Part shown: positions 1-14,243 of the stretch, in pieces
Position numbering within the stretch: the first letter of the stretch is position 1
Layout: every line of letters begins with the position of its first letter
From: Acidimicrobiales bacterium
GTDB taxonomy: Bacteria; Actinomycetota; Acidimicrobiia; Acidimicrobiales; SHLQ01
DNA length: 15,090 bases
Direction of reading: 5' to 3'
NCBI GenBank assembly: GCA_013002375.1
Contig: JABDJW010000268.1
Span: 1 to 15,090 of the forward strand
Program-made: the position numbers and the translations under genes
The notes under the pieces: generated by a model
Database searches by the model: none
What the model saw: only the letters and a program-made list of their open reading frames with translations
Told to the model about the DNA's origin: nothing

Positions 1-1076
1 GCGCAGGCATGGGTGTCGCCGGCGGCGACGGCGGCCACACCGCTCAGCGTGCCCGAGCCTCCGGGGCCCACGACAGGCACCGGGAACATCGAATCCGCCT
101 TCGTATTGTCTCCGAGCTGGCCATCGGCGTTGTCCCCCCAGCACCACGCGCCACCAATGGCATCCGATGCGCAGTTGAAGCTGTCGCCCGACCCGATTCC
201 GGTGATACCGGTGAGACGCCCGATCCCGCCCGGCCCGACAACTTCGACCGGTGTCAGACGATCAACTGTGGTGTTGTCACCCAGCTGGCCCTTGTTGTTC
301 TCGCCCCAGCACCAGACGAATCCTTCGGTGCGGGCGAGGCAGGCATGGGTCAACCCGCCGTCCACATCGATGATCGACTTCCATTGTTCGACCGCGAAGG
401 AGCTGTTTGCGGTCGAGGTCGGATCACCGAAAGCGGCGTCGGAATCGCTGACGGGGTTCGCCACGGTGGCGACGATCGCCAGACCGAGAACCACCGCGCC
501 GATCGGCATCGCGGCGACACGAGCGTTCGGGCTCGCGGCCGGGAGATCGCGACGCGCTCGCCATTGGTTGTGCAGGTCCTGGAGCATCCACCGTGAGGCC
601 AGCGCCGCGACGACGAGCGCGGCTGCTGCGGCCAGGAGCCGCAGCACGTCCCCTCGCTCGAGCCACACGAGCGGTGTGCCGATCACCGGAACGACGACCT
701 TGCCGATCCCGCGGATCGCCTCCGGCTGAACCGGGGTGGAGTCGACGCGGGGGTTGGCGTCGCCCTGGGTGACGTACGCCCCCGAAGGATTCCGGCTCAC
801 CACTCGATGGGTGACCAGACCGGCACCCGAAGGGTTCTCGAAGACGATGATCGTGCCGGGATCGAGCTGCTGACGCTCGTCGGGAGACGACGTGATCAAG
901 ACATCGCCGACCGACACCGACGGGGCCATCGACCCGGATGTCACCGCGACCGAATCCCAGCCCCGGGCGAGAGGCAGCACCGTCACCCACAGCACGAGCC
1001 ACGTGAGCGCGGCCAGCACCGTCAGGCTCACCAGCCCGATGATGTATCGCGAGACTTCTATGGTTCGGGCGGTCAT
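1..1076 (-). CDS. Archaeal/SipW-type signal peptidase I (S26B) continuing in frame into an RCC1/BLIP-II-like beta-propeller repeat domain; partial, C-terminus beyond the left window edge
   Basis: Minus-strand ATG at 1076 in a frame with no stop down to position 1. The ORF track omits it only because it has no in-window stop. My translation begins MTARTIEVSRYIIGLVSLTVLAALTWLVLWVTV (TM1), then ...VTSGSMAPSVSVGDVLI (SipW catalytic Ser box, SGSMxP), then ...GLVTHRVV (catalytic His about 40 residues later, as in B. subtilis SipW), then a C-terminal hydrophobic anchor LRLLAAAAALVVAALA at about residue 165. From about residue 189 there is an in-frame Met (507-509) followed by a second signal-peptide-like segment. 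After that come three visible RCC1-type blades: GGLTHACLARTEGFVWCWGENNKGQLGDNT, GDSFNCASDAIGGAWCWGDNADGQLGDNT and GDTHACA. Confidence 0.7.
   Translation of the reverse strand, partial: MTARTIEVSRYIIGLVSLTVLAALTWLVLWVTVLPLARGWDSVAVTSGSMAPSVSVGDVLITSSPDERQQLDPGTIIVFENPSGAGLVTHRVVSRNPSGAYVTQGDANPRVDSTPVQPEAIRGIGKVVVPVIGTPLVWLERGDVLRLLAAAAALVVAALASRWMLQDLHNQWRARRDLPAASPNARVAAMPIGAVVLGLAIVATVANPVSDSDAAFGDPTSTANSSFAVEQWKSIIDVDGGLTHACLARTEGFVWCWGENNKGQLGDNTTVDRLTPVEVVGPGGIGRLTGITGIGSGDSFNCASDAIGGAWCWGDNADGQLGDNTKADSMFPVPVVGPGGSGTLSGVAAVAAGDTHAC
423..509 (-). other. Internal SipW-cognate-like signal peptide at the junction of the peptidase and RCC1 parts (n-region RARRD, h-region MPIGAVVLGLAIVATVA, c-region NPVSDSDAAFGD)
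   Basis: Translated minus strand reads ...HNQWRARRDLPAASPNARVAAMPIGAVVLGLAIVATVANPVSDSDAAFGDPTSTANSSF. The AAFGD-PTST-xx-SF stretch closely mirrors AAFTD-STST-xx-SF in the neighbouring TasA-like gene and resembles the TasA-class AAF(N/T)D motif. The Met at 507-509 falls exactly where a normal ~190-aa SipW would end. Confidence 0.5.
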
Positions 1077-1098
1077 GAGGGTTCCGGCCGGGCGCGTC

Positions 1099-1722
1099 CT
1101 AGGACTGGACTTCCCAGGCAAACGTGAGCGCAGTGACCGACTCACCTTGCTCGGAGTCGGGCGCCGCCGCGTCGAGGCTGACGGTCACGCGGTAGGTCTT
1201 CGTATCCGGCGTCGCGGCGGGATCCCACAATCCGGCTCCCGTGGCGTAGTCGGTGTGCGTGGTGTCGAAGTCGGCGAGCGTCCCGCCCATCTCGATGATG
1301 CTGTCGGGTACGAACCCCGCACAGTTCCCGAACGACCCGCCGTTACCTTCTTCGATGGTGAGGTTGAGGTAGGTGCCGAGGTCGCCGGAGTCGGTGTAAC
1401 CGCCCGAATACAGCTTCACAGCCGCCGGGTCGGCCACCGTGCCTTGGTACGTCACGAGAATGCAGTCGCTGACCGCCTGACCGGGAACCAGATCCGGCAC
1501 GGAGAACATCACCGCGTCCAGGTCGTCGTCGATCAGATCGACCGTTCCGGCCGTGAAGGAGTTGCCCGACGTCGACGTCGAATCAGTGAACGCCGCAATC
1601 GAGCTGGTGACGACCACCGCGCTCACACCCACCAAAGAGGCCATCGCCGCGAGTGCGAGCACGACCATCTTGGCCGTGCCGCCGCCCGGCGTTCCCGTCG
1701 AAACACCTTGTCCTGCCATCAT
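1099..1722 (-). CDS. Small secreted protein with a SipW-cognate (TasA/camelysin-class) signal peptide, the putative substrate of the adjacent SipW
   Basis: 207-aa ORF. N-terminus MMAGQGVSTGTPGGGTAKMVVLALAAMASLVGVSAVVVTSSIAAFTDSTSTSGNSF has a hydrophobic h-region followed by the AAF(T/N)D signature of SipW-dependent proteins such as TasA. It sits 22 nt upstream of the sipW-type gene on the same strand. AGGGA lies 5-9 nt before the ATG. GC3 is high. Confidence 0.65.
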   Translation of the reverse strand: MMAGQGVSTGTPGGGTAKMVVLALAAMASLVGVSAVVVTSSIAAFTDSTSTSGNSFTAGTVDLIDDDLDAVMFSVPDLVPGQAVSDCILVTYQGTVADPAAVKLYSGGYTDSGDLGTYLNLTIEEGNGGSFGNCAGFVPDSIIEMGGTLADFDTTHTDYATGAGLWDPAATPDTKTYRVTVSLDAAAPDSEQGESVTALTFAWEVQS

Positions 1723-1920
1723 TCATCCCTGAGTCTCGTTTTCGAATACCTGGCGGTGTATCGACGAATGACCAGCCGTTCTTGACCGATCGGACGGAAA
1801 TGAGCTGTATGACCCGGTTGAGGACACCACGGAATCGCCCCGCTCCTGAAGGGGGCGCGCCGGAACCCACATCGACCGCGGCGGAGGGTCGGGGCAGGGG
1901 CGGCGACAACTCGACCGGGA

Positions 1921-3162
1921 TCAGGCCCCGGTCAGCAGTCGGTGGGCCGCAGCAGCAGCCTCGGCGCCCGACCGAAGAGCGCCATTGATCGATGCGTCGT
2001 GGCGATGGTCGCCGGCGACGATCGCACCCGAGGGCGCTGTGGTGATACCGAGCGCGGTCTGGCCCGGCGGCTGGCGCGGCTGGGCCCGATCGACGCGGTC
2101 GACCCGCAAGAGATCCCACCCCTCGACCATCGGGCCGTACCAGTCTCGGAGCTGGGCGCGGAGTTGATCAGCGATGTCGGGGGCCGAGCGAGCCGGCGTC
2201 GCGACCGACGACGCCACGACGAGCTGACGGCCCGTCGGCGCATACATCGGACTGACCGCCGCCAGATTGGCCACCGAGTTCACCGGACCGGATCCGGTGC
2301 TGTTCAGCACGAGGGTCGACCCGATGGGCACCGGTTGGTTCGACGAGAACCAACAGCTGGTCACGCCGTTCCACCCTCGATCGTCGACACCGGCCAGCTC
2401 GGCGGCCTCGGTCATGCCGGTGGCCACGATGACGGCGCCGGCGTCGACCCGTTCGCCACCGGCCAGCAGGATTCCGTTGCCGTCGACCTTGGCGACCGGT
2501 GTCTGCAGGTGGACCGTGTCGTCGGGCAACCGAGCCAGCAGGTGTTCGCCGATCTGGCCCATCCCGCCGGCGGGAACCACGGCATCGCCGATGGCCAACA
2601 TCCGGAACACGAAGTCGAGCACTCGGCTGGATCCCGACAAGGTGGGATCGAGGGTGATGCCGGCAAACAACGGCTGGAAGAAGCGCTCGATCATGGTCGA
2701 CGAGAAGCCCAGGTCCTCGAGTCGGGCCTGGGCCGTCTGCTCCGGCGCCGACCAGAGTTGGGCGAGGGATTGCCTGGTGACCCGGCGGCGATACCGCAGG
2801 ATGCGCAGCTTGTCGGTCAACGAGCCGACCGGCGCCCGAACGGTGGGCACCAGGTCGGCTGGACGCCGAAAGGGGTCGCCGACGCGGTGGAACGACCCAT
2901 CGATACGCAGCTCGACTCCGGGCTGAAACGGCCGCAGATCGAGGACGTCGTACCGCAACAGCTGCTGAGCCTCCGGGTAGGCATCGAGCAGGATCTGGAA
3001 GCCTCGATCGAGCCGGTAGCCGTCGACGACATCGGTCCGCACTCGCCCACCGGGCCCGTCGGCCCGCTCGAACACGACGACGGATCGACCGGCTTCGCAA
3101 AGCCGAATCGCGGCGGCGAGGCCGGCCAGGCCGGCACCGACGATGGCGACGTCGGCGGTCAT
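1921..3162 (-). CDS. FAD-dependent oxidoreductase of the flavin amine oxidase / protoporphyrinogen-phytoene desaturase-like family
   Basis: True start is probably the ATG at 3162 (MTADVAIVGAGLAGLAAAIRLCEAGRSVVVFERADGPGGR = Rossmann GxGxxG ... E ... GGR dinucleotide fold). The C-terminal ...AIVAGDHRHDASINGALRSGAEAA motif is typical of this family. The ATG overlaps the upstream esterase TGA as ATGA (3159-3162). The listed 522-aa form adds an Arg-rich 5' extension that looks spurious. Confidence 0.75.
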   Translation of the reverse strand: MTADVAIVGAGLAGLAAAIRLCEAGRSVVVFERADGPGGRVRTDVVDGYRLDRGFQILLDAYPEAQQLLRYDVLDLRPFQPGVELRIDGSFHRVGDPFRRPADLVPTVRAPVGSLTDKLRILRYRRRVTRQSLAQLWSAPEQTAQARLEDLGFSSTMIERFFQPLFAGITLDPTLSGSSRVLDFVFRMLAIGDAVVPAGGMGQIGEHLLARLPDDTVHLQTPVAKVDGNGILLAGGERVDAGAVIVATGMTEAAELAGVDDRGWNGVTSCWFSSNQPVPIGSTLVLNSTGSGPVNSVANLAAVSPMYAPTGRQLVVASSVATPARSAPDIADQLRAQLRDWYGPMVEGWDLLRVDRVDRAQPRQPPGQTALGITTAPSGAIVAGDHRHDASINGALRSGAEAAAAAHRLLTGA

Positions 3163-4652
3163 CGCACGCCCGACCAACAATCGATGGTGTCGATCACCGG
3201 GTCGGGGCGCCATGTGGTCGTCGTGTCGAAATCGATCAGCGAACGTTGCTCGGGGCTGTAGGCCAGCCATTCGGGTCCGCCATCGAAGCCGGGCCGGCCG
3301 TGGCGCAGGAACGAGATCCACGTCGCATGCATGATGTCGGCGACGGGCTGCGGATCGGGGCCCGGGCCGATGAAGAGGTCGACGCCCGGCTGATGGAGGT
3401 TGTCGAACACGAAGGGAATCTCCAGGGCATGGCATGCGCCGAGCGCGCCCTCGAAGGCCCGTGATTGCCAGCTGAACCGGTACATCCAAGTATCGGCGCC
3501 GTGCGCGGCTCGAGCGTCGGCCATGCGGACCGCCGGCACGCCGAACATGGCGTCACCACCGATCGCCACCGCCAGGTCGCCGGCCGACGTGGCCCGACCG
3601 GCCTCCCGGTACCGGTCGATCGCGGCGGCCGGATCGGGATGGGTGCGAGCCACGAACCCTTCGAGTCGATCGTCGGTGGTCTGCTGGGTGCCCCACAGAC
3701 GGGTCTCGTCGGCATTGGTGCCCATCAGCACCGGTTTGTCGCAACCGACGCCGGCCGCGATAGCGTCGATCGGCCGGCGCGGTAGGACGACGCCATCGAC
3801 CACCGGGTAGAACGGCGAGTTCATCAAGCCCAGCTCGGCCGGGGAACGGCCGTAGAGCTCCTCCTGGGCGTCGAGCAGCCGCTCGGCGCCGAGCGACCGC
3901 AGGCCCTCGACCGAGCCGGACGCCACGCCGGCGGCCTCGAACAACCAGCGGGCCACCCCTTGGCCTTGTTCGGCGTCGTGGACGGCGTGCGCGGCCCCGC
4001 TCTGGAGGATCGCCTGGGCGAAAAGGGGCTGGGCGGCCGGCAGCGAGAGCAACGTACCGACGCTGAACGCCCCGGCCGATTCGCCGGCGATCGTGACCCG
4101 CTCGGGATCTCCCCCAAAGCTCGCGATGTTGTCCTGCACCCACTGGAGCGCGGCCAGCTGATCCAGGATGCCCACCACCCCGGAGCCGGCCAGCTCATCG
4201 TCGAGATGGTCGAGGTAGGTGAACCCGAAGGCGCCCAGCCGATAGTTGATCGACACCACGACGACGTCGCCCTGCTCGGCGAAACGGGCGCCGTTGTACC
4301 AGGGGATCGCGCCCATGCCGTGGCGGAAGTCGCCGCCATGGATCCACACCATGACCGGCCGAGCGCCATCGACCGCCGGCGTCTGCACGTTGAGCGAGAG
4401 GCACTCGGCTTCATCCCAGGGCAGAGCAGCGGCGCTGGTGAGCCCGTCGCCGGGGCGCTGAGGCGCCCCCTTGGTGAAGCGGGTGGCGTCGCGGGGCTCG
4501 GACCAGGCTTCGACCGGTTGCGGCGGCCCAAACCGGTTGTGGCCGACGGGAGGGGCAGCATATGGAATGCCGGCGAACGAGAGCACGCCGTCGCGTTCGC
4601 GCCCGAAAACCGGACCGGACGTTGTGGTTGCGACTGGACTCGAGTTCACCAT
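3159..4652 (-). CDS. Carboxylesterase/lipase type B family (para-nitrobenzyl-esterase-like)
   Basis: Nucleophile elbow VTIAGESAGAFSV (G-E-S-A-G). N-terminus MVNSSPVATTTSGPVFGRE...FAGIPYAAPPVG matches the family's N-terminal block. I prefer the ATG at 4652 over the listed GTG at 4742, which would overlap the upstream gene. The stop TGA overlaps the next ATG. Confidence 0.8.
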   Translation of the reverse strand: MVNSSPVATTTSGPVFGRERDGVLSFAGIPYAAPPVGHNRFGPPQPVEAWSEPRDATRFTKGAPQRPGDGLTSAAALPWDEAECLSLNVQTPAVDGARPVMVWIHGGDFRHGMGAIPWYNGARFAEQGDVVVVSINYRLGAFGFTYLDHLDDELAGSGVVGILDQLAALQWVQDNIASFGGDPERVTIAGESAGAFSVGTLLSLPAAQPLFAQAILQSGAAHAVHDAEQGQGVARWLFEAAGVASGSVEGLRSLGAERLLDAQEELYGRSPAELGLMNSPFYPVVDGVVLPRRPIDAIAAGVGCDKPVLMGTNADETRLWGTQQTTDDRLEGFVARTHPDPAAAIDRYREAGRATSAGDLAVAIGGDAMFGVPAVRMADARAAHGADTWMYRFSWQSRAFEGALGACHALEIPFVFDNLHQPGVDLFIGPGPDPQPVADIMHATWISFLRHGRPGFDGGPEWLAYSPEQRSLIDFDTTTTWRPDPVIDTIDCWSGVR

Positions 4653-4663
4653 GCCCGCGAACG

Positions 4664-5650
4664 CTAGCCGAGCGCGGGCAGAACCGAGTCGGCGTACAAC
4701 TGGAGGCTCCTCCAGCCCTCGTCGATCGGCATGCCCCCGCACAGCGGGTGGTGGGTCATGAAGGCGAAGTCACCGGCGCCCTGCAGCTCGTCGATCGCCT
4801 CCTGCGGCGACAGCACCCGATAGATGCCCTCCTCGCGGAGCTCGGCCGGATTGCCGGCCGCCGATTTCACGGCTGATTTGTTCGACGGTGGTTGCCACGC
4901 GGCATAGACCGAAGCCTCGTTGAAGAAATACTGGCCGAGTTCGGCCCAGGCTTGATCCGGGTCTTCGTGAATGAAGTTCAGGGTGGTGTTGGGTGCCGGC
5001 ATGATGCACAGGCCGGTCTTGCCGTTGGCGGCCAGCTCATCGTTGTAGAGGGCTTCGAGATCCGGCAGGTGCGCGGCGGGGAAGAACGGCAACCCGAGTC
5101 GCGCCGCCCGCCTGGCCGATGCCGGGCTGGTGCCGCCGATCAGGAGCTGAGGATGCGGTTTGGAGATCGGGACCGGCGTGACCCGTACCGTTTCACCCTT
5201 GTAGTCGAACGGCTCGCCGGTCCACGCGGCCAACATCACGTCGAGCGCTTCGTCGAGCAGCTTGCCCCGACGCTTCCATTCGCGGTCGAGCAAGTGGTAC
5301 TCCGAAGGTCGGTACCCCAGCCCGGTGATGATCGACAACCGACCACCGCCCGAGAGCAGATCGGCCACCGCGATGTCTTCGGCCAGACGAACCGGATGGT
5401 GTTGCGGCACCAGCAGCGCCGAGATGCTGACGCCGATCCTCTTGGTCCGGGCGAACACCATGCAGGCCATGGCCAAGGGCGAGCAGCTCCAACCGTTCTC
5501 CGCGCCGTGGTGTTCCTCGAGGGTGATGGTCGAGAAGCCGTGTTGCTCGGCGAACTCGGCCATGTCGACAAACGCCTGATAGCGCGCCGACATCTCGATC
5601 GGCTCGAGGCCCGGCTGAATCATGTTGAACCGGGCGATGGACATCACCAT
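4664..5650 (-). CDS. LLM-class (luciferase-like monooxygenase) flavin-dependent oxidoreductase
   Basis: 328 aa with typical LLM blocks: ...TITLEEHHGAENGW..., ...LLVPQHHPVRLAEDIAVADLLSGGRLSIITGLGYRPSEY..., ...KPHPQLLIGGTSPASARRAARLGLPF. Strong SD AAGGGGG sits 8 nt before the ATG at 5650. Stop lies 11 nt before the esterase start. Confidence 0.8.
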   Translation of the reverse strand: MVMSIARFNMIQPGLEPIEMSARYQAFVDMAEFAEQHGFSTITLEEHHGAENGWSCSPLAMACMVFARTKRIGVSISALLVPQHHPVRLAEDIAVADLLSGGGRLSIITGLGYRPSEYHLLDREWKRRGKLLDEALDVMLAAWTGEPFDYKGETVRVTPVPISKPHPQLLIGGTSPASARRAARLGLPFFPAAHLPDLEALYNDELAANGKTGLCIMPAPNTTLNFIHEDPDQAWAELGQYFFNEASVYAAWQPPSNKSAVKSAAGNPAELREEGIYRVLSPQEAIDELQGAGDFAFMTHHPLCGGMPIDEGWRSLQLYADSVLPALG

Positions 5651-5750
5651 TGGCTGACCCCCTTGGTCGGGGCCCAGTTTCTGGCACGGCGACGGACCGG
5701 TGCCAGCTCAACGCCGTGAAATCTCGGCGCGGGTGGTGGCTCCGAAGCCG

Positions 5751-6953
5751 CTAGCGCTTGGTACCGGAGCAGACGATGCTGGCGTTTTCGCCCAGCGCGG
5801 TCTCGGCGGCGATGACCGCTCCGTCGACCTCGACCGCACAGCTCAATTCTCCGGTGCCCACTCGCCGCACGACCGCGACGTTGATTTCCTGTTCACCCTC
5901 GAAGACATCGATCGTGGTGCGATACGGCAGCCACACGTCGACCGACAGCGGCACGTTGATGCCATCGTCGATGCTGACCTGGGCCAAGCCCTCACCTTCG
6001 ATGACCACCGAACCCCGCTCGAGCTGACGACCCAGCACCTCGGCCGGTCGATCGCTCGTGGGGACACCATCGGAACCACCGCTGTTGGCGATGGCCAGAC
6101 CGCCGACGAAGAGCGCGGCGATGATCGACGCCGCACCGAGCGCCAGGTTCGTCTGCTGCTCGGGCCGCAGGATCGGCAAGCGACGATCGCTGACCTCGAC
6201 CAGGCCGCGAGCCGAGCGGGCGAAATCACCGTGCATCGAGATCGGCCACACCGTCGAGGAGTCGTACAGTGCGCCGTCGAACTTCACCGCCGTGACGGTC
6301 GCCGAACCGAGGTCGGCACCGCGAAGGTCGGCCTTGCGCATATCGGCGCCGGTCAGGTCGGCATCCCCGAAGCGGGCGTCGCGGAGATCGGCTTCTTCGA
6401 AATGCGCCTCTTGCAGGTTTGCTTTGAAGAAGCGCGCGCCCCGGAAGTCAGCTCGAAAGCCGTGCAGATCGAAGCCGTCGATGTTGTCGAAGCGAGCATC
6501 GCGGGCGTCGGATCGGGTCAAGACCGCGTCGGCCATGACCGTGCCGGTGAAATCGGCCTTGCGAAGGTTGGCGTGAGCCAATCGGATCGAGTTCATCTGC
6601 CGGTTGCGCAGGTAGGAACCGTCGAGGTTGGCCGCGGAGAAGTCGCAGGAGTCGAGCGGATTGCCGGTGTTGATCTGCATCTGCAGATCGCGGCGGCGAC
6701 GGGAACTCTCGCCGATGATGAACCCCCAGGTCACGATGGCACCCAACACACCGGCGCCGACCAGGACCAGACCGGCCTGACGGCTGGTCTCCGACGGCGC
6801 CCGGTCGACGACGACCGCGCCGACGCCGACGATGAGCCCGATGGCCAGAATCAAGGGGACCCATACGGCTCGCCGAATGGTGTCTCGCGCGGCCGCCAGG
6901 GACTGCATCAATCGTCCGGCCAGGGCCGCGGTTTGCTTCCGGAACTTCTTCAT
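5751..6953 (-). CDS. Membrane-anchored pentapeptide-repeat protein with three TM helices and a ~110-aa C-terminal extracytoplasmic domain of unknown type
   Basis: Tandem A(D/N)LxxA pentapeptide repeats: ANLRKADFTGTVMADAVLTRSDARDARFDNIDGFDLHGFRADFRGARFFKANLQEAHFEEADLRDARFGDADLTGADMRKADLRGADLGSA. Hydrophobic helices are AVWVPLILAIGLIVGVGAVVV, AGLVLVGAGVLGAIVTWGFIIG and LALGAASIIAALFVGGLAIA. Start set at the ATG at 6953 (MKKFRKQ...). The listed GTG at 7004 would overlap the divergent neighbour. The antisense 439-aa ORF is D/R/G-rich junk. Confidence 0.65.
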   Translation of the reverse strand: MKKFRKQTAALAGRLMQSLAAARDTIRRAVWVPLILAIGLIVGVGAVVVDRAPSETSRQAGLVLVGAGVLGAIVTWGFIIGESSRRRRDLQMQINTGNPLDSCDFSAANLDGSYLRNRQMNSIRLAHANLRKADFTGTVMADAVLTRSDARDARFDNIDGFDLHGFRADFRGARFFKANLQEAHFEEADLRDARFGDADLTGADMRKADLRGADLGSATVTAVKFDGALYDSSTVWPISMHGDFARSARGLVEVSDRRLPILRPEQQTNLALGAASIIAALFVGGLAIANSGGSDGVPTSDRPAEVLGRQLERGSVVIEGEGLAQVSIDDGINVPLSVDVWLPYRTTIDVFEGEQEINVAVVRRVGTGELSCAVEVDGAVIAAETALGENASIVCSGTKR

Positions 6954-7018
6954 GGTTTGCCAATCGGCACGAGGGACACCAAGTTGAACGGGTGGCTGCT
7001 TCACCCCGCCTGCTTCTG

Positions 7019-7731: not shown

Positions 7732-8538
7732 CTATTCGCGGGCGCGGCTCACCGCCGCGGTGACGGCCCGTCGCACCGGGCCGGGCAGGCTGGCGTTCAC
7801 GCTTCGAAGCACCCGGTTCCGTTTGCCGGAAACCACGATGGCCTTGCCTGCCTCGGCGCCGACCAGACCCGCTTCTGCGACCTGCTCGGCCGTTTGCCAG
7901 ATCCAGTCGGGAACGTCGTTGATGTCGGAGCCGGCGCGCTCCTGGAACTCGGTGCGGGTCATGCCCGGCATCAGACAGGAGACGACGACACCGGAATCGG
8001 CCAGATCGACCGCAAGGGACTGCGAAAAGCTGTTCACGAAGGCCTTGGTGGCGTTGTAGGTCGCCGAGCCCGGTCCGACGAGTTCGGCCGCCACCGACGA
8101 CACGTTCAAGACGGTGCCGCCGCCACGGTCGCGCATCGCCTGGGCCGCGGCATGGCACAGGCGATGCAGGGCGACGACGTTCACGGCGACGACGGTGGCC
8201 TCGCCCGCGTAGTCGAGATCGGCAAACGGACCGTCGAACCCGATTCCCGCGTTGTTGACCAGCAGGTCGATCGGACGCTCGACGGCCGACACTCGGGCCG
8301 CGACACGGTCGAGGTCGGCAGGGTCGGCCAGGTCGGCCACCAGCACCTCGACCTGCACATCGTGGGCGGTCATGACGTCGACCGCCAGGGCATCAAGTCG
8401 TTCTTGATCCCGCGCCACGACCACCAGGTGCGTGGAGCGCTCGGCCAGCTGCTGGGCCATGGCCAGCCCGATACCCGAGGACGCCCCGGTGACGAGCGCC
8501 CGAGTCCATGTCGACTTCGGATGCAGCGTTGCGGTCAT
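7732..8538 (-). CDS. SDR-family short-chain dehydrogenase/reductase
   Basis: TGASSGIGLAMA (TGxxxGxG), NNAG, and a catalytic S...YNATK (YxxxK). 268 aa. Convergent with the nucleosidase gene, with a 2-nt gap between stops. Confidence 0.85.
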   Translation of the reverse strand: MTATLHPKSTWTRALVTGASSGIGLAMAQQLAERSTHLVVVARDQERLDALAVDVMTAHDVQVEVLVADLADPADLDRVAARVSAVERPIDLLVNNAGIGFDGPFADLDYAGEATVVAVNVVALHRLCHAAAQAMRDRGGGTVLNVSSVAAELVGPGSATYNATKAFVNSFSQSLAVDLADSGVVVSCLMPGMTRTEFQERAGSDINDVPDWIWQTAEQVAEAGLVGAEAGKAIVVSGKRNRVLRSVNASLPGPVRRAVTAAVSRARE

Positions 8539-8618
8539 GGGCCGAGACTACCGAGTGGCGGACCGGGCAGCCGGTCGCCCAGCTGGTTGAATGGGTGCAG
8601 CGGCAGTGGAGCGCATGA

Positions 8619-9533
8619 ATGAGCAATCGCGAACTGGTGGTTTTGGGCACGGCGTCGGCCGCGCCGACCCGCGAGCGCAACCACAACGGCTATGCGCTCC
8701 GATGGGACGATCAGCTCGTGCTCTTCGACCCGGGCGAAGGGTTTCAGCGCCAGTGCACGTTGGCCGGCGTACCGATCGCCCGGGCCACCGCGCTCTGCCT
8801 CACCCATTTCCACGGCGACCATTGCCTCGGCCTGCCCGGAGTCATCGCCAAGCGCGACATGGATCACCGCGAAGAGCTCCTCCCGATCTTCTACCCGGCG
8901 CAAGGCGAGCGGATCCTCCAGAGTTTGTGCTCCAGCACCGCCAACGACATGCAGATCAATCTGGACGCCACCCCGACGACCGCACCACCGGATCGGCTCT
9001 TGACCGCAGGCACGATCGGCCAGCTGACGGTCGAGGTCGCGGCCCTCGAGCACCGGGTCCCGACCCAGGGGTATCGGCTCACCGAGCCGGATCACCGGCA
9101 CTTTCTCGTCGACCGACTCGAGGCGGCCGGTATCGAAGGCGAGGCGATTGGCGAGCTGGCCGCCCACGGCGCGATCGAGACCGCCCGAGGCACGGTCCGC
9201 CTCGAGGACGTCTCCGAAATCACACCGGGCCGGCGGTTTGCGTTCGTGCTGGACACCCACCTCTGCCGCGGCGCCGAGTTGCTCGCCGATGGCGCCGACC
9301 TCATGGTGTGTGAGAGCACGTTCCTCGAATCCGAACGGCACCAGGCCGACGATTACGGCCACATGACCGCGGCGGACGCCGGACGGCTCGCCGCCGCCGC
9401 CGGCGTCAAACGCCTGGTGCTCACCCACTTCTCGTCCCGCTACCACCACTTCGAAGCATTTGCGGCCGAAGCCGGCCGATTTCACGACGATGTCTGGGCG
9501 GCCAACGATTTCGATCGCGTGCCCTTCGACTGA
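8619..9533 (+). CDS. rnz: Ribonuclease Z (tRNA 3'-processing endonuclease, metallo-beta-lactamase fold)
   Basis: LVVLGTASAAPTRERNHNGYAL..., CLTHFHGDHCLGLPG (HxHxDH zinc motif), C-terminal ...VLTHFSSRY. 304 aa. GGAG sits 8 nt upstream of the ATG. Confidence 0.8.
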   Translation: MSNRELVVLGTASAAPTRERNHNGYALRWDDQLVLFDPGEGFQRQCTLAGVPIARATALCLTHFHGDHCLGLPGVIAKRDMDHREELLPIFYPAQGERILQSLCSSTANDMQINLDATPTTAPPDRLLTAGTIGQLTVEVAALEHRVPTQGYRLTEPDHRHFLVDRLEAAGIEGEAIGELAAHGAIETARGTVRLEDVSEITPGRRFAFVLDTHLCRGAELLADGADLMVCESTFLESERHQADDYGHMTAADAGRLAAAAGVKRLVLTHFSSRYHHFEAFAAEAGRFHDDVWAANDFDRVPFD

Positions 9534-10486: not shown

Positions 10487-11334
10487 CGCGGAAGGGCCTT
10501 TCGAATGCTCGCGGCGATCCGGGCCGGGTCTTGCATCGGCCCGAAATGGTTGAGGTCGGCCATCGACACGTAGAAGCCGTTGAGCAGGTGTTCGGCCACA
10601 GTCGGGGCGATCATCGACGGCGGGCCACCGTCGCCCGACCCGACCACGGTGGTGGGCGTCGCGATGGCACCCAGATTGGCGAAGACCTCGCCGTGTTCGG
10701 CCGAGAAGAAGGCCGCTTCGGTCGCGCCGCGGCACCGCAGCTGCACCGTGCCGTCGTCGAGATCGCCGAAGCCGTGTTCGACGTAGGCCCGCAAGGACGC
10801 CGGATCGGTCGTCGAGAACGGCGGTTTCGCTGCGTAGTTCTCGAACGCTTCGTCGCGACTGGCGAAGATCTCTCGACGGCGGCGGGCCGAATCGGCGAGC
10901 GGATTCGGGGCACCGGCCGGCCGGGCCGCCTCGGCCGGGAAGACGATCGGCTCGAACGCCCACAGGCTGCGAAACCGGCCCGCGACGGCTTGTTCGGCCA
11001 GCATCAGGCCGCACCCACCCATCGACCAACCGACGCCGTCGAGCTGACCCGGCTCCGCGTGCCCGGCTGCGTAGAGATGGTCGACGACCGCACTGACGTC
11101 GTCGCCCACGCCGTCCCACTCGTACGCCAGGTTGTCGGGGGTCCGCGAGACGCCGTGACCGCGGAGGTCGATGGCCCAACAGCGGGCGTCGGCCGCGAGG
11201 GCGTCGGCCACCGGCTGCCACACCCGCCCGTGCATTCCGTTGGCGTGCACCATCAACAGCGCCGGTCCGACCCCGCCGAGATCGTGCAGCGCGACCTCGA
11301 CCCCATCGGTCGACGGAATGTACGCAATGGTCAT
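10483..11334 (-). CDS. Alpha/beta-fold hydrolase
   Basis: MTIAYIPSTDGVEVALHDLGGVGPALLMVHANGMHG...GWSMGG (GxSxG nucleophile elbow). 283 aa, high GC3. Confidence 0.8.
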   Translation of the reverse strand: MTIAYIPSTDGVEVALHDLGGVGPALLMVHANGMHGRVWQPVADALAADARCWAIDLRGHGVSRTPDNLAYEWDGVGDDVSAVVDHLYAAGHAEPGQLDGVGWSMGGCGLMLAEQAVAGRFRSLWAFEPIVFPAEAARPAGAPNPLADSARRRREIFASRDEAFENYAAKPPFSTTDPASLRAYVEHGFGDLDDGTVQLRCRGATEAAFFSAEHGEVFANLGAIATPTTVVGSGDGGPPSMIAPTVAEHLLNGFYVSMADLNHFGPMQDPARIAASIRKALPR

Positions 11335-11365
11335 CAGCGCCCGAGCATAACGGCGCTACTCACCG

Positions 11366-11644
11366 GTGGAAGCGGGCAATACCCTGAGAATCGTGGATGG
11401 ATATGCCGGACCGGCTCGGGCCCTGGTCGACGGACGTGATGTCGGCCAGTGGCGGGTGGAACTCGAGCCATTGGCCGACGACCGCGACGAGCGCTCCTGG
11501 GGCGGCCGAGTCGCGAACAGCGACTACGTCCTGTGGGGCCTGGCCGGTCGGAGACTCGAGCTCGTCCTCCCGAGCGGCCACCGGGCCGCGTGCGTGGTAC
11601 GCCCGACCGGCGAAATCATCGGCCTCGGACCCGCCCCGTTCTGA
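11366..11644 (+). CDS. Hypothetical small protein (92 aa, GTG start), no recognisable family
   Basis: Most third codon positions are G/C, as expected for coding DNA here. It fills the gap between the divergent hydrolase start and hairpin repeat copy A, whose stem begins 10 nt after its TGA. Confidence 0.35.
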   Translation: MEAGNTLRIVDGYAGPARALVDGRDVGQWRVELEPLADDRDERSWGGRVANSDYVLWGLAGRRLELVLPSGHRAACVVRPTGEIIGLGPAPF

Positions 11645-11701
11645 CCCAACCCGATCTCTGATGCCTGAACCGCACTATGTACGGGTAGAGCGTCAGAGAT
11701 C
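11645..11701. repeat. Copy A of a ~56-nt conserved two-tier hairpin repeat
   Basis: cccaacccgATCTCTGATGCctgaaCCGCACtatGTACGGgtagaGCGTCAGAGATcg. An 11-12-bp outer stem with one G-U pair encloses an inner CCGCAC/GTACGG stem. It is about 88 % identical to the copy at 14186-14243. Confidence 0.7.
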
Positions 11702-11715
11702 GCGCTGTAATCCGC

Positions 11716-11744
11716 TTGACCTAGAGCCCATTAACAGCTACTAT
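11716..11744 (+). promoter_or_regulatory. Near-consensus sigma-A-type promoter driving the PadR-NfeD-flotillin operon, predicted leaderless
   Basis: -35 TTGACC (11716-11721), 17-nt spacer, -10 TACTAT (11739-11744). The A of the ATG at 11752 lies 8 nt downstream, so the transcript would begin at or next to the start codon. The region is unusually AT-rich for this window. Confidence 0.55.
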
Positions 11745-11761
11745 TCAACGCATGGTAGCTG
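11735..11761 (+). promoter_or_regulatory. Inverted repeat CAGCTAC-N13-GTAGCTG overlapping the -10 element and start codon; candidate PadR auto-operator
   Basis: Perfect 7-bp arms at 11735-11741 and 11755-11761. PadR regulators classically bind dyads overlapping their own promoters. Confidence 0.4.
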
Positions 11762-12156
11762 GCAATGCACCAGAGCCGAACGCTCTGACCACGTCGAAAC
11801 ATCACGCCCAGATCATGAAGGGCGTGCTCGACATGTGTTTGCTGGCCCGAATCGCCGAGGAACCGAGCTACGGCTACGAACTCGTCACCACCCTCAACGA
11901 CGGCGGTTTGCCCGTCGCCGGCGAGGGCAGCATCTACCCGGTGCTCAAACGTCTGAAACAACAGGGGTTGATCGAGGGTTACCTCGTCGACTCCCCCTCC
12001 GGACCGGCCCGCAAGTACTACCGAGCCACTCCTGAAGGGGATCTGGTGTTGGCCGACTGGAAAACCGATTGGACCAACGTGGCCAACGGTGTGAACGCCA
12101 TGTTGGCCACCCGGAACAAACCGACATCGAAAGGCAAGAAAGGAACCGCACGATGA
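11752..12156 (+). CDS. PadR-family transcriptional regulator
   Basis: ...MKGVLDMCLLARIAEEPSYGYELVTTLNDGG...EGSIYPVLKRLKQQGLIEGYLVDSPSGPARKYYRATPEG is the PadR winged-helix signature. The alternative internal start at 11815 (MKGVLD) removes a 21-aa lower-GC3 N-terminal extension. The stop overlaps the next ATG as ATGA. Confidence 0.8.
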   Translation: MVAGNAPEPNALTTSKHHAQIMKGVLDMCLLARIAEEPSYGYELVTTLNDGGLPVAGEGSIYPVLKRLKQQGLIEGYLVDSPSGPARKYYRATPEGDLVLADWKTDWTNVANGVNAMLATRNKPTSKGKKGTAR

Positions 12157-12797
12157 TCTGGATCTACCTCTCTGCCCTCATCTTCGGTGGCGTGTTCACG
12201 ATCCCGATGGTCCTCGGCGGCCTCGACTTCGATGGCGACGTCGATTTCGACTTCGACGCCGATGGTGATCTCGCCCTCGACACCGGCGATTTCGATGCCG
12301 GCGGCGACATCGACGTCAGTGAAACCAACACCGGCGGCATCGATACCGGCGGTGCGATCAGCGACTTCGTCGGCACGCTGCTGTCGTTCCGCTCGATCGT
12401 CTTCGCCCTCACGTTCTTCGGACTGACCGGCATCGTGTTCAACCTGTTCGATTACAGCGAACCGTTCCCGCTGCTGATGGCGGCCGGCCTTGGCTTCGTG
12501 GCTGCGGCGCTCAACGCGCAACTCTTTAGCATGCTGGGCCGCGGTGAATCCGACAGCCGACTGTCGAACCGCGACATCGAAGGCAAGCCGGCAACCGTCG
12601 TGCTGCCGCTCAACGAAGACCGCAAGGGGCGCATTCGTGTGCCCATCCGTGGCGAGACGATCTACATGGTCGCTCTGCCGTGGGACAAGGCAAACAGGCC
12701 CTATGCCGTCGGCGAGTCCGTCGTCGTCGTAGAAATTGAGGACGGGACTGCATTGGTGGCGCCGCTGCCAGGTCTCGAACTCGGGGAGGAAAGCTAA
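12153..12797 (+). CDS. NfeD-like (YuaF-type) membrane protein: three TM helices, an acidic D/G-rich loop and a C-terminal OB-fold beta-barrel domain
   Basis: True start is ATG 12153 (MIWIYLSALIFGGVFTIPMVLGG), not the upstream ORF start at 12069. TM2 and TM3 are TLLSFRSIVFALTFFGLTGIVF and FPLLMAAGLGFVAAALNAQLF. The C-terminus GKPATVVLPLNEDRKGRIRVPIRGETIYMVALPWDKANRPYAVGESVVVVEIEDGTALV looks like the NfeD short-form beta-barrel. It sits immediately upstream of a flotillin gene, as yuaF-floT does in Bacillus. Confidence 0.7.
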   Translation: MIWIYLSALIFGGVFTIPMVLGGLDFDGDVDFDFDADGDLALDTGDFDAGGDIDVSETNTGGIDTGGAISDFVGTLLSFRSIVFALTFFGLTGIVFNLFDYSEPFPLLMAAGLGFVAAALNAQLFSMLGRGESDSRLSNRDIEGKPATVVLPLNEDRKGRIRVPIRGETIYMVALPWDKANRPYAVGESVVVVEIEDGTALVAPLPGLELGEES

Positions 12798-12799
12798 CC

Positions 12800-14179
12800 A
12801 TGGAAGCAATCTTGATTGTCGCCGTCGTCGTGGCGATCATGTTCGTCGTCGTTCTGACCGCGGTGAAGAGCCTGATCATCATCTGCCCCCCGAACAAGGT
12901 GGCCGTGATCTCTGGTCGCCAAGTGAAGTTGGGCGACGGGTCCAAACGGGGCTACCGCGTCCTGCGCGGCGGCTTCACGGTTCGAATTCCGATGATCGAG
13001 AAGGTCGACTACATGGATCTCAACACGATCCCGATCGATGTCTCGGTATCCAACGCCTACTCGAAAGGTGCGATTCCCCTCGACGTGCAGGGCGTCGCCA
13101 ACATCAAGGTGTCGAGCCGCGATGGCGTTCTGGCCAACTCGGTCGAGCGCTTTCTCGGTCGTCCGCCGGAGTACATCCAGCAGATCGCCAAGGAAAACCT
13201 CGAAGCGAACCTACGCGGTGTGCTCTCGACGCTGACCCCCGAAGAGGTCAACGAGGATCGGCTGAAGTTTGCCCAGACCCTCATCGACGAGGCCGACGAC
13301 GACATTCGTACCCTCGGGCTCGAGCTCGACGTGCTGAAGATTCAGAACGTCACCGACCAGGTCGGCTACCTCGAAGCCGTCGGTCGGCGCCGCACGGCGC
13401 AGGTCATCAAGGAAGCCCGCGAGAGCGAGGCGCTGCAGTCCGCCGAAGCCGAGGAGGCCGAGGCCCAGAGCCGCAAGCGGGCCGAGCTGGCCAAGGTGCA
13501 GTCAAATCTGGCCATCGCCGAGGAGACCAACAAGCTGCGGGTACGGCAAGCCGAACTCGACGCCGAAGCCAACGCCCGGGAGGAAGAGGCTGGGGTGGCC
13601 GGTGAACGAGCCAAGGCCGCCGCGGAACAGCTGCTCGAAGACGAGCGCATCAAGCTCCAGAAACGGCGCCTCGAAGCCAACGTGGTTGCTCCGGCCCGGG
13701 CCAAGCGCGAAGCGCTCGAACTCGAAGCCAAGGGCAACGCGGCCCACATCATCGAGGACGGCAACGCCCAGATCGAAGTGTTCCGCCGGATGAGCAACGA
13801 GTATCGCTCGGCCGGTGCGGCCGCCCAAGAGGTCATGGTCATGCAGATGCTGCCCGACCTGGTGGACCAAATCGTGGGCACGGTCAACAACATGGACATC
13901 GGCAAGGTCACCGTCATCGACAACAGTGGCGGGGCCGGCGGCGGGGCTCTCCCCGGTGTCGCCAGCCAAATGCCCGCCGCGGTCATCGCCATCACCGAGC
14001 AGATCGAGGCGGCCACCGGGGTGAACATCCTGCACGCGCTGTCGAAGCCGTCGGCCATCGACGATGATGAGATCGTCGATGCCCAGGCCAAGATCGCCGC
14101 GGAGGCCTCAAACGATGCCGGCGACGGCGCGAGCGAGCCCAGCTCATCACTACCCCCACCGCCCCCCGCGGCCAACTAG
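12800..14179 (+). CDS. Flotillin-like SPFH/band-7 domain protein (FloT/YuaG-like)
   Basis: N-terminal TM AILIVAVVVAIMFVVVLTAV, then an SPFH block (VISGRQVKLGDGSKRGYRVLRGGFTVRIPMIEKVDYMDLNTIPIDV...QGVANIKV...), a long EA-rich coiled coil (AEAEEAEAQSRKRAELAKVQ...) and a Pro-rich tail. Strong SD GGGGAGGAAAG before the ATG. 459 aa. Confidence 0.85.
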   Translation: MEAILIVAVVVAIMFVVVLTAVKSLIIICPPNKVAVISGRQVKLGDGSKRGYRVLRGGFTVRIPMIEKVDYMDLNTIPIDVSVSNAYSKGAIPLDVQGVANIKVSSRDGVLANSVERFLGRPPEYIQQIAKENLEANLRGVLSTLTPEEVNEDRLKFAQTLIDEADDDIRTLGLELDVLKIQNVTDQVGYLEAVGRRRTAQVIKEARESEALQSAEAEEAEAQSRKRAELAKVQSNLAIAEETNKLRVRQAELDAEANAREEEAGVAGERAKAAAEQLLEDERIKLQKRRLEANVVAPARAKREALELEAKGNAAHIIEDGNAQIEVFRRMSNEYRSAGAAAQEVMVMQMLPDLVDQIVGTVNNMDIGKVTVIDNSGGAGGGALPGVASQMPAAVIAITEQIEAATGVNILHALSKPSAIDDDEIVDAQAKIAAEASNDAGDGASEPSSSLPPPPPAAN

Positions 14180-14185
14180 CCGAGG

Positions 14186-14243
14186 ACCCACCCAATCTCT
14201 GATGCCTGAACCGCACTATGTGCGGGTAAGGCATCAGAGATTC
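14186..14243. repeat. Copy B of the conserved hairpin repeat, placed as a bidirectional terminator between the convergent flotillin and P450 genes
   Basis: acccacccaATCTCTGATGCCtgaaCCGCACtatGTGCGGgtaaGGCATCAGAGATt. A perfect 12-13-bp outer stem and a perfect 6-bp inner stem, followed by a GTTTT run. It fills the gap between the flotillin TAG (14179) and the P450 stop (14242-14244). Confidence 0.7.

Follow-up and report, generated by a model that had tools for sequence, protein, structure and literature searches.

A two-gene locus at one end of an Acidimicrobiales contig encodes a TasA-like secreted protein and, just downstream on the same strand, an archaeal/endoplasmic reticulum (ER)-type signal peptidase I that is fused in frame to an RCC1 beta-propeller. 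The junction between peptidase and propeller carries a motif that corresponds to the signal and cleavage region of the TasA-like protein, and the fusion is conserved in related loci, where other extracellular domains can take the place of the propeller. We refer to the analyzed DNA as the window; it is the entire 15,090-bp contig (JABDJW010000268.1) of a metagenome-assembled genome (MAG). A signal peptidase translated together with what appears to be its own substrate is an unusual case. At roughly even odds (a probability of about 0.5), we read the locus as a TasA-type donor-strand fiber module in which the propeller, cut free by the enzyme to which it is joined, would plug its strand into a subunit and take a TapA-like or tip role.

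A peptidase-propeller fusion next to a TasA-like gene

A first-pass annotation, made from the window alone, had placed the open reading frame (ORF) of a 207-amino-acid (aa) protein at 1099-1722. These coordinates are exact; the ORF lies on the minus strand, and its product is identical to the deposited protein HKN26_10780. The same annotation had described a dedicated peptidase next to the RCC1 cargo. The peptidase is present, not as a neighboring gene but as the N-terminal half of the polypeptide that carries the propeller: on the minus strand, the frame opened by the ATG at 1076 meets no stop codon before it leaves the window at position 3, so that the peptidase and the RCC1 repeats form one ORF, annotated at NCBI as "signal peptidase I, partial" (359 aa). 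An internal start at Met190, which would give a separate RCC1 protein, was rejected, as there is no upstream stop and this Met is not conserved in two close homologs (P0125 and P0126). Scans of window positions 1-2200 returned no promoter-like or terminator-like sites. The features of the locus are as follows (a slash marks a predicted cut, and TM denotes a transmembrane segment).

1099..1722, minus strand: TasA-superfamily precursor gene, 207 aa (ORF list, TIGR04088, AlphaFold2 model, PDB fold match)
1594..1722, minus strand: signal peptide, aa 1-43, ending S41-I42-A43, predicted cut A43/A44 (TIGR04088 at aa 27-61; conservation among relatives)
1543..1593, minus strand: predicted N-terminal donor strand AFTDSTSTSGNSFTAGT, aa 44-60 (conservation; putative function by correspondence to TasA)
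1102..1545, minus strand: beta-sandwich (jelly-roll) body, aa 60-207, acidic, with invariant C87 and C134
1077..1098, minus strand: 22-nucleotide (nt) spacer between the two same-strand genes (sequence)
3..1076, minus strand: peptidase-RCC1 fusion ORF, running off the contig end, first 358 aa visible (no stop codon)
975..1043, minus strand: TM1, aa 12-34 (hydrophobic stretch; model helix 2-38)
618..1031, minus strand: archaeal/ER-type signal peptidase I catalytic domain, aa 16-153 (TIGR02228)
930-932, minus strand: candidate catalytic Ser49 in SGSM
807-809, minus strand: candidate catalytic His90 in THR
759-761, minus strand: candidate catalytic Asp106 in GDAN
588..647, minus strand: TM2, aa 144-163, ending SRW (hydropathy; model helix 144-177)
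510..587, minus strand: predicted cytoplasmic loop of 26 residues, aa 164-189, containing WRARRD (sequence; positive-inside rule)
459..509, minus strand: TM3, the putative internal signal-peptide h-region, aa 190-206 (hydropathy; unfused homologs P0127, P0128, L038 and L012)
435..458, minus strand: c-region NPVSDSDA, aa 207-214, predicted cut A214/A215 after S-D-A (pattern S or A, x, A/A-F)
387..434, minus strand: donor-strand-like segment AFGDPTSTANSSFAVE, aa 215-230 (9/17 match to the subunit segment, preceding Ala included)
3..386, minus strand: RCC1 beta-propeller repeats, aa 231-358, truncated by the contig end (PF00415, PF13540, PF25390; predicted local distance difference test score, pLDDT, ~95)

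The segment AAFTDSTSTSGNSFTAG of the 207-aa protein and the segment AAFGDPTSTANSSFAVE, which precedes the RCC1 repeats and makes up residues 214-230 of the fusion ORF (window 387-437, minus strand), are identical at 9 of 17 positions. Their ungapped BLOSUM62 score is 41, compared with 14.5 ± 4.1 when the 170 aa that follow the peptidase domain were shuffled 300 times; no shuffle (0/300) reached 41. The match had been described as almost residue for residue, which was an overstatement, but it is real and above chance; the coordinates given for the RCC1 side, 423-470, were roughly right in that they cover the c-region plus AAFGD, although the segment proper extends as given above. Both segments read A-F-x-D, and in the 207-aa protein a hydrophobic stretch is followed by the motif AAFTD, which occupies residues 43-47 and reads from window 1596 downward. 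The expected conservation in homologs was borne out by a comparison set of 74 relatives of the subunit (49-71% identity to the 207-aa protein) together with 62 distinct fused cargo segments. These share a profile of S/A at -3, A at -1, A at +1, F at +2, T at +6, N at +8 and G at +10, which continues further out with N at +11, S at +12, F/L/W at +13 and A at +15. A lipoprotein (signal peptidase II) site was rejected, as there is no Cys near either cut site.

Signal, family, fold and context together support the identification of the 207-aa protein as a secreted subunit of the TasA superfamily. The NCBIfam model for SipW-cognate signals, TIGR04088, matches aa 27-61 with 26.1 bits (cutoff, 19), in agreement with the signal type assigned to it earlier. 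The RER_14450-type label given at the same time finds no such backing, since TIGR04089 does not match at E ≤ 1, and apart from TIGR04088 no SipW-linked NCBIfam model matches the protein. PF12389 (Peptidase_M73, camelysin/TasA) scores 22.4 bits, just under its gathering score of 22.5, and covers only aa 25-96; among the 74 relatives, 51 match PF12389 (E ≤ 1e-3; best, 7.2e-9), 17 match TIGR04088 and five match the TasA equivalog NF046066. S41 and A43 are nearly invariant in this set (S at -3 in 97% and A at -1 in 99%), F45 is invariant, T49 and G59 are nearly so, and in the strand AFTDSTSTSGNSF position +4 is D in 70% and position +13 is F/L/V. The signal-peptide cut is predicted between A43 and A44, a placement made by analogy with TasA, whose mature form begins at A28-F29 (PMC10151520).

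An AlphaFold2 model built with the 74-sequence alignment has a mean pLDDT of 86.9 and forms a confident eight-stranded sandwich from residue 60, with aa 41-52 below 50 in this monomer. In a Foldseek search against the PDB, TasA (5of1_B) was the top match and the sole one at E < 1e-3. The mature subunit has 164 aa, with 15% Asp plus Glu, an isoelectric point of 4.05 and two invariant Cys residues.

The peptidase domain of the fusion scores 72.9 bits against TIGR02228 (MEROPS S26B; cutoff, 51.85), and the motifs TSGSMxP, GLVTHR and GDAN are kept in the consensus of 27 sequences. By analogy with SipW, Ser49, His90 and Asp106 are the candidate catalytic residues, and judged by its sequence the domain looks active. 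With 42.8 bits it stays below the cutoff of 190 for the Bacillus SipW equivalog (NF046067), and on its sequence it is best called SipW-like, not a SipW ortholog. The RCC1 part is matched by PF00415 (65.6 bits; cutoff, 21.7), PF13540 (46.5 bits; cutoff, 22) and PF25390. In the AlphaFold2 model of the fusion, the peptidase and the RCC1 blades are confident and residues 186-232 have a pLDDT below 50, which suits a flexible N-terminal extension of the propeller. After TM2, on the predicted cytoplasmic side, a conserved stretch SRWALLD(R/K)FDPW is found; in the window it is SRWMLQDLHNQW (552-596; aa 161-175), equivalents occur in loci L003-L046, and the unfused peptidase of L037 has it too.

Conservation of the fusion and variety of its cargo

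The fusion is not peculiar to the window. P0125 (518 aa) and P0126 (584 aa) share 40-41% identity with it over 96-97% of its length and have the identical order of peptidase, two further TM segments, motif and RCC1 propeller. P0126, at locus L001, directly follows a 190-aa TasA-like gene, and the next gene is on the opposite strand, so that the module there consists of just two genes. Further RCC1 fusions occur at L003 (a 1,242-aa frame), at L010 and in P0395. No C-terminal anchor motif or hydrophobic tail was evident by eye in the full-length RCC1 fusions, on which no motif or TM scan was run. The first-pass annotation had asked whether an RCC1 protein recurs in such neighborhoods, and it does, fused in L001, L003, L010 and P0125 and as a separate gene in the Nonomuraea locus L038 and the Actinoplanes locus L047.

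To place the fusion in a wider context, we scanned one genome per species and recovered 47 loci with relatives of the 207-aa protein. Most come from Acidimicrobiia; among the others are loci of Nonomuraea, Actinoplanes, Kineosporia and Nocardioides, as well as some from MAGs that bear the label Dehalococcoidia or Tepidiformaceae. A peptidase ORF lies immediately downstream of the TasA-like gene in 39 of the 47, and about 32 of these 39 peptidases continue for at least 100 residues past TM2. The extension follows one plan: TM2, SRWALLDxFDPW, a basic loop, TM3, a motif near AAF..T.N.GNSF and a variable domain, which by Pfam can be RCC1, FG-GAP propellers, CBM96 or Laminin_G_3, to which NCBIfam adds DNRLRE. 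All of these domain types are binding modules, and many of the variable domains appear, by eye, to start with an FN3-like module. With the peptidase domain as the only query, an exhaustive HMMER search recovered 11,967 proteins (E ≤ 1e-3); among the 150 best cluster representatives, 72 have an extension of more than 100 residues, most of them with the motif.

Unfused equivalents were also found. In Nonomuraea sp. CA-141351 (L038) the gene order is RCC1 protein, TasA-like gene and short peptidase, and the RCC1 protein has an ordinary N-terminal signal that ends in ASA, followed by AFRAITSTTGTW. In L012 a short peptidase precedes a separate cargo gene with the motif, and in L047 (Actinoplanes) a divergently oriented RCC1 gene carries it. 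P0127, P0128 and P0129 are standalone RCC1 proteins, the first two with the motif as N-terminal signal. Judged from these sequences, the segment serves as a cleavable signal where it stands at an N terminus. Within loci, the strands of subunit and cargo are also more alike than between loci (mean, 35.5 versus 27.2 under strict extraction; n = 15; permutation P ~ 5e-5). A wider and cruder extraction gave 31.4 versus 26.5 (n = 25; P ~ 3e-4), or P ~ 0.003 without two near-duplicate loci.

The related loci have features of their own. L002 (7438-9356) and L028 lie on one 1.17-Mb contig of a long-read MAG. There, a single frameshift near the conserved SRW (AAALCAVHGG / SRWML) puts the RCC1 part out of frame with the peptidase; it may be genuine, mark a pseudogene or stem from an assembly indel. 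Two GGDEF-EAL genes flank this module (4000-6543 and 11334-13430), and two PilZ genes and a GGDEF gene stand around the standalone RCC1 gene of P0128; such cyclic-di-GMP genes would fit the control of a biofilm matrix. Very large peptidase fusions, from more than 1,100 to more than 1,900 aa, occur in L032 (6537-12503, an ORF that exceeds the fetched locus), L031 (6564-10586) and L030 (3497-7063); in these, the shared motif is followed by as many as 25 FG-GAP repeat matches. Some loci have two or more TasA-like paralogs (L011, at 4564-5202 and 5878-6516; L049; L027, at 8147-9151), of which the extra copies may be minor subunits. L011 and L014 belong to the MAGs with a Dehalococcoidia or Tepidiformaceae label, so the family may extend outside Actinomycetota, unless these bins carry wrong labels.

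A donor-strand reading and its alternatives

In the reading that we favor, the 207-aa protein would be the major subunit: its signal would be cut after S-I-A, exposing the ~15-residue strand given above in front of the acidic jelly-roll body, and the strand of one subunit would fill the groove of the next by donor-strand complementation, in analogy with TasA, AbpA and AbpX. The second gene would make a single membrane protein with TM1, an extracellular peptidase, TM2, a basic loop, TM3, the site S-D-A/A-F-G-D and the RCC1 propeller. By the positive-inside rule, its N terminus and Arg-rich loop would be cytoplasmic, with the catalytic domain and the cut site outside near the membrane. TM3 plus the motif would be an internal copy of the subunit's signal peptide, and because of this likeness the peptidase is expected to cut there, either in cis or from a neighboring molecule. 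The cut would free a propeller whose new N terminus, AFGDPTSTANSSF, mimics the subunit donor strand; as no C-terminal anchor is visible by eye, this strand would be the only visible attachment of the propeller. By donating it to the first subunit, the propeller could start or cap a fiber and place a binding module at one end, a role akin to that proposed for TapA, AbpB and a pilus tip adhesin. The fusion would also set a 1:1 ratio of peptidase to nucleator and keep both at the same membrane site. A putative partnership of the propeller with a TasA-like fiber, as the first-pass annotation had suggested, fits the evidence.

Several observations weigh against this reading. We infer cleavage, fiber formation and docking from sequence, models and analogy. 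The earlier extension of the SipW-cognate signal to the RCC1 side did not hold: TIGR04088 matches neither the isolated 69-aa RCC1-side segment nor the fused or standalone RCC1 homologs at E ≤ 10. A profile built from the TasA-like family gives the internal signal of the window only 6.9 bits; with the same profile the N-terminal signals of P0127, P0128 and P0129 score 17.6-25.8 bits and P0124 falls within 16-26. When PDB sequences were searched with a profile of the 74 aligned relatives, the matches were at chance level only and TasA was not found, and the AlphaFold2 model of the fusion is uninformative on whether the cut site reaches the active site. The window copy of the propeller is truncated by the contig end, the full propeller being present in the full-length fused homologs. 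The co-variation between subunit and cargo strands is modest, with the window's own pair only 5th of 25, and what it shows is a shared constraint, for which the common partner could equally be the peptidase or the subunit groove.

The main rival explanation we regard as credible but less probable. Here the propeller would be a plain second substrate that, once cut off, works as a secreted binding protein, free or attached to the wall, and does not belong to a fiber; the peptidase would read an extended site. The motif does span the cut site and includes the -3 and -1 residues, and co-variation is equally expected for two substrates that must fit one peptidase. The standalone RCC1 proteins P0127 (L050) and P0128 carry the motif without an annotated adjoining TasA-like gene, although the L050 contig is just 3.4 kb and the P0128 locus holds unannotated genes of 226 and 192 aa. 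A free second substrate accounts less well for conservation that reaches to about +15, as signal peptidases I are not known to read nearly so far. The strand is also kept while the cargo domains differ widely, the cargo gene is nearly always paired with a TasA-like gene, and the same stretch is the donor strand in TasA (PMC9674648).

That the extension is never cleaved seems improbable. The protein would then be a three-TM peptidase with a permanent extracellular RCC1 module (accessory, substrate recruiting or cell surface), and the motif would be a tethered pseudo-substrate or a membrane-anchored strand at the fiber base. Peptidase-accessory fusions are known, as in the DUF5305 type and in TafD with four TM segments (PMC11821415; bioRxiv 10.64898/2026.01.04.697558), and such permanence would agree with the failure of TIGR04088 to score the segment and with an AlphaFold2 model that lends no support to the site reaching the active center. 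Unfused homologs, however, carry the segment as an ordinary N-terminal signal, whose removal is needed for export; the fusions keep small residues at the site (A at -1 in 84% and S/A at -3 in 83%); and Pfam scans of the window fusion and ten related fusions found no DUF5305. The chance is slim that the 207-aa protein forms no fibers and is a monomeric secreted protein, such as a camelysin-type protease or an adhesin. The Pfam family is indeed named "camelysin metallo-endopeptidase," and non-fiber jelly rolls match the fold nearly as well as TasA does. A camelysin-type metalloprotease role is unlikely, as the 207 residues include a single His and no HExxH, and the invariant F at +2 and the conserved strand are features of polymerization in TasA and AbpX (PMC9674648). 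An artifact of assembly or annotation (a lost stop codon or a frameshift) is very hard to credit: the contig is metagenome assembled and the two parts in L002/L028 are in different frames, but the in-frame architecture recurs in independent assemblies at 40-50% identity, in ~32 of 39 loci with other cargos and, as extensions of more than 100 aa, in the 72 of 150 peptidase representatives noted above.

Known systems, wider meaning and the rest of the window

The system type itself, a dedicated peptidase with a TasA-like subunit and a strand-bearing accessory, is known. In TasA the donor strand is formed by residues 28-38, right at the SipW cut, and F29, I32 and F39 of the strand contact neighboring subunits (PMC9674648). 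The N terminus of TapA resembles this strand and TapA nucleates fibers (PMC9674648); its residues 44-57 are enough for biofilm formation, and the sipW start codon is overlapped by the tapA stop codon (PMC10151520). The B. subtilis tapA-sipW-tasA operon thus resembles the window in its dedicated ER/archaeal-type peptidase, its jelly-roll subunit, a strand that starts at the cut (A/AF.D) and a low-abundance accessory with a strand-mimic N terminus that nucleates fibers, with tapA and sipW translationally coupled (PMC9674648, PMC10151520). In the window, by contrast, the putative accessory is covalently joined to the C-terminal side of the peptidase by way of two added TM segments, an RCC1 propeller forms its body where TapA has a V-set immunoglobulin fold, the subunit gene comes first, and the host is an Acidimicrobiales actinobacterium. 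The window subunit is also only 164 aa when mature, and PDB sequence search detects no similarity to TasA. With regard to TapA/YqxM (TIGR04087) homology, NCBIfam gave only peptidase-model matches on the fusion, and what the window propeller and TapA would have in common, by analogy, is the proposed role as an N-terminal strand mimic alone.

Other systems share parts of this plan. In the B. cereus cluster sipW-calY1-bc_1280-calY2, a SipW-type peptidase likewise adjoins Peptidase_M73 proteins, one paralog being proposed as TapA-like (PMC10151520), but there is neither a fusion nor a propeller there, and the window shows one M73-like gene before the contig end. Among archaea, AbpB has been proposed as first-strand donor and adhesin (PMC9245690), and AbpX loci combine a TIGR02228-type peptidase with tip proteins of varied fold, whose co-assembly by strand donation was predicted with AlphaFold 3 (bioRxiv 10.64898/2026.01.04.697558). 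The AbpA/AbpB and AbpX systems are thus donor-strand filaments encoded beside the same peptidase type, and their subunits resemble that of the window in their overall acidity and in having an aromatic side chain at +2 and an acidic one at +4 (PMC9245690; bioRxiv 10.64898/2026.01.04.697558). They differ in that the AbpX tip proteins are separate genes, the AbpX-associated peptidase is described with ten TM helices and no peptidase-substrate fusion is reported. The SPase I-DUF5305 proteins (TafD/TafG type; Anaerolinea thermophila E8MZY1) likewise join a dedicated peptidase with extra TM segments to a second extracellular domain (PMC11821415; bioRxiv 10.64898/2026.01.04.697558). DUF5305 is regarded as a permanent accessory, whereas the fused part in the window starts with a copy of the substrate signal and cut site.

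Chaperone-usher tip adhesins of the FimH type offer a looser parallel, in which a variable binding domain ends a strand-complemented fiber, and the analogy has been drawn for AbpB and TapA (PMC9245690). The assembly pathway is unrelated to that of the window module. A chaperone-usher tip adhesin, moreover, accepts a strand and does not donate one. For the propeller itself, BLIP-II of Streptomyces provides the example of a seven-bladed RCC1-type propeller that serves as an extracellular protein-binding module. Secreted propellers of the BLIP-II type are not known to be linked to fibers or to a dedicated peptidase.

What appears new is that peptidase and substrate are covalently joined, that this is widespread in Actinomycetota and that the head is an RCC1 propeller. 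In the literature searched, within the coverage of one library, we found no description of RCC1 propellers in TasA loci, nor of a signal peptidase joined to its substrate or to a copy of the signal and cut site of that substrate. TasA-type fibers are a main scaffold of Gram-positive and archaeal biofilms, and how they start, what anchors them and what gives them binding specificity are debated. A natural fusion of a peptidase with a presumed nucleator or tip is strong "Rosetta-stone" evidence that both functions act together, and it offers a simple system, with one protein expected to cut itself and one subunit. The related loci also point to a large unstudied set of actinobacterial surface fibers with exchangeable binding heads, in lineages such as Acidimicrobiia, Nonomuraea and Actinoplanes that have no characterized fibers of this kind. 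More tentatively, and at less than even odds, many Actinomycetota may make a self-processing "peptidase plus tip" protein, in which a substrate copy is mounted on a TM hairpin and would be cut off by the peptidase, its signal being kept as the third TM segment, and the freed binding module (RCC1, FG-GAP, CBM96 or LamG) would seed or cap the fiber with its N-terminal strand. If this is true, the loci would represent an unrecognized class of enzyme-substrate fusions and actinobacterial adhesive fibers with swappable tips.

Unrelated metabolic genes fill the remainder of the window, and Rfam has no match anywhere in it. One minus-strand gene (5751-7004) encodes a 417-aa pentapeptide-repeat protein that is hydrophobic around residues 50-70. 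The gene shares 13 nt with the start of the phosphorylase-family gene next to it, and no link to the fiber module is evident. A 55-nt direct repeat, 89% identical between its copies, is present at 11646-11700 and 14187-14241. Each copy is an imperfect palindrome (ATCTCTGATGCC...GGCATCAGAGAT) that matches no Rfam family, and the two copies bracket a PadR regulator (11752-12156), a 242-aa membrane protein (12069-12797) and an SPFH/flotillin gene (12800-14179).

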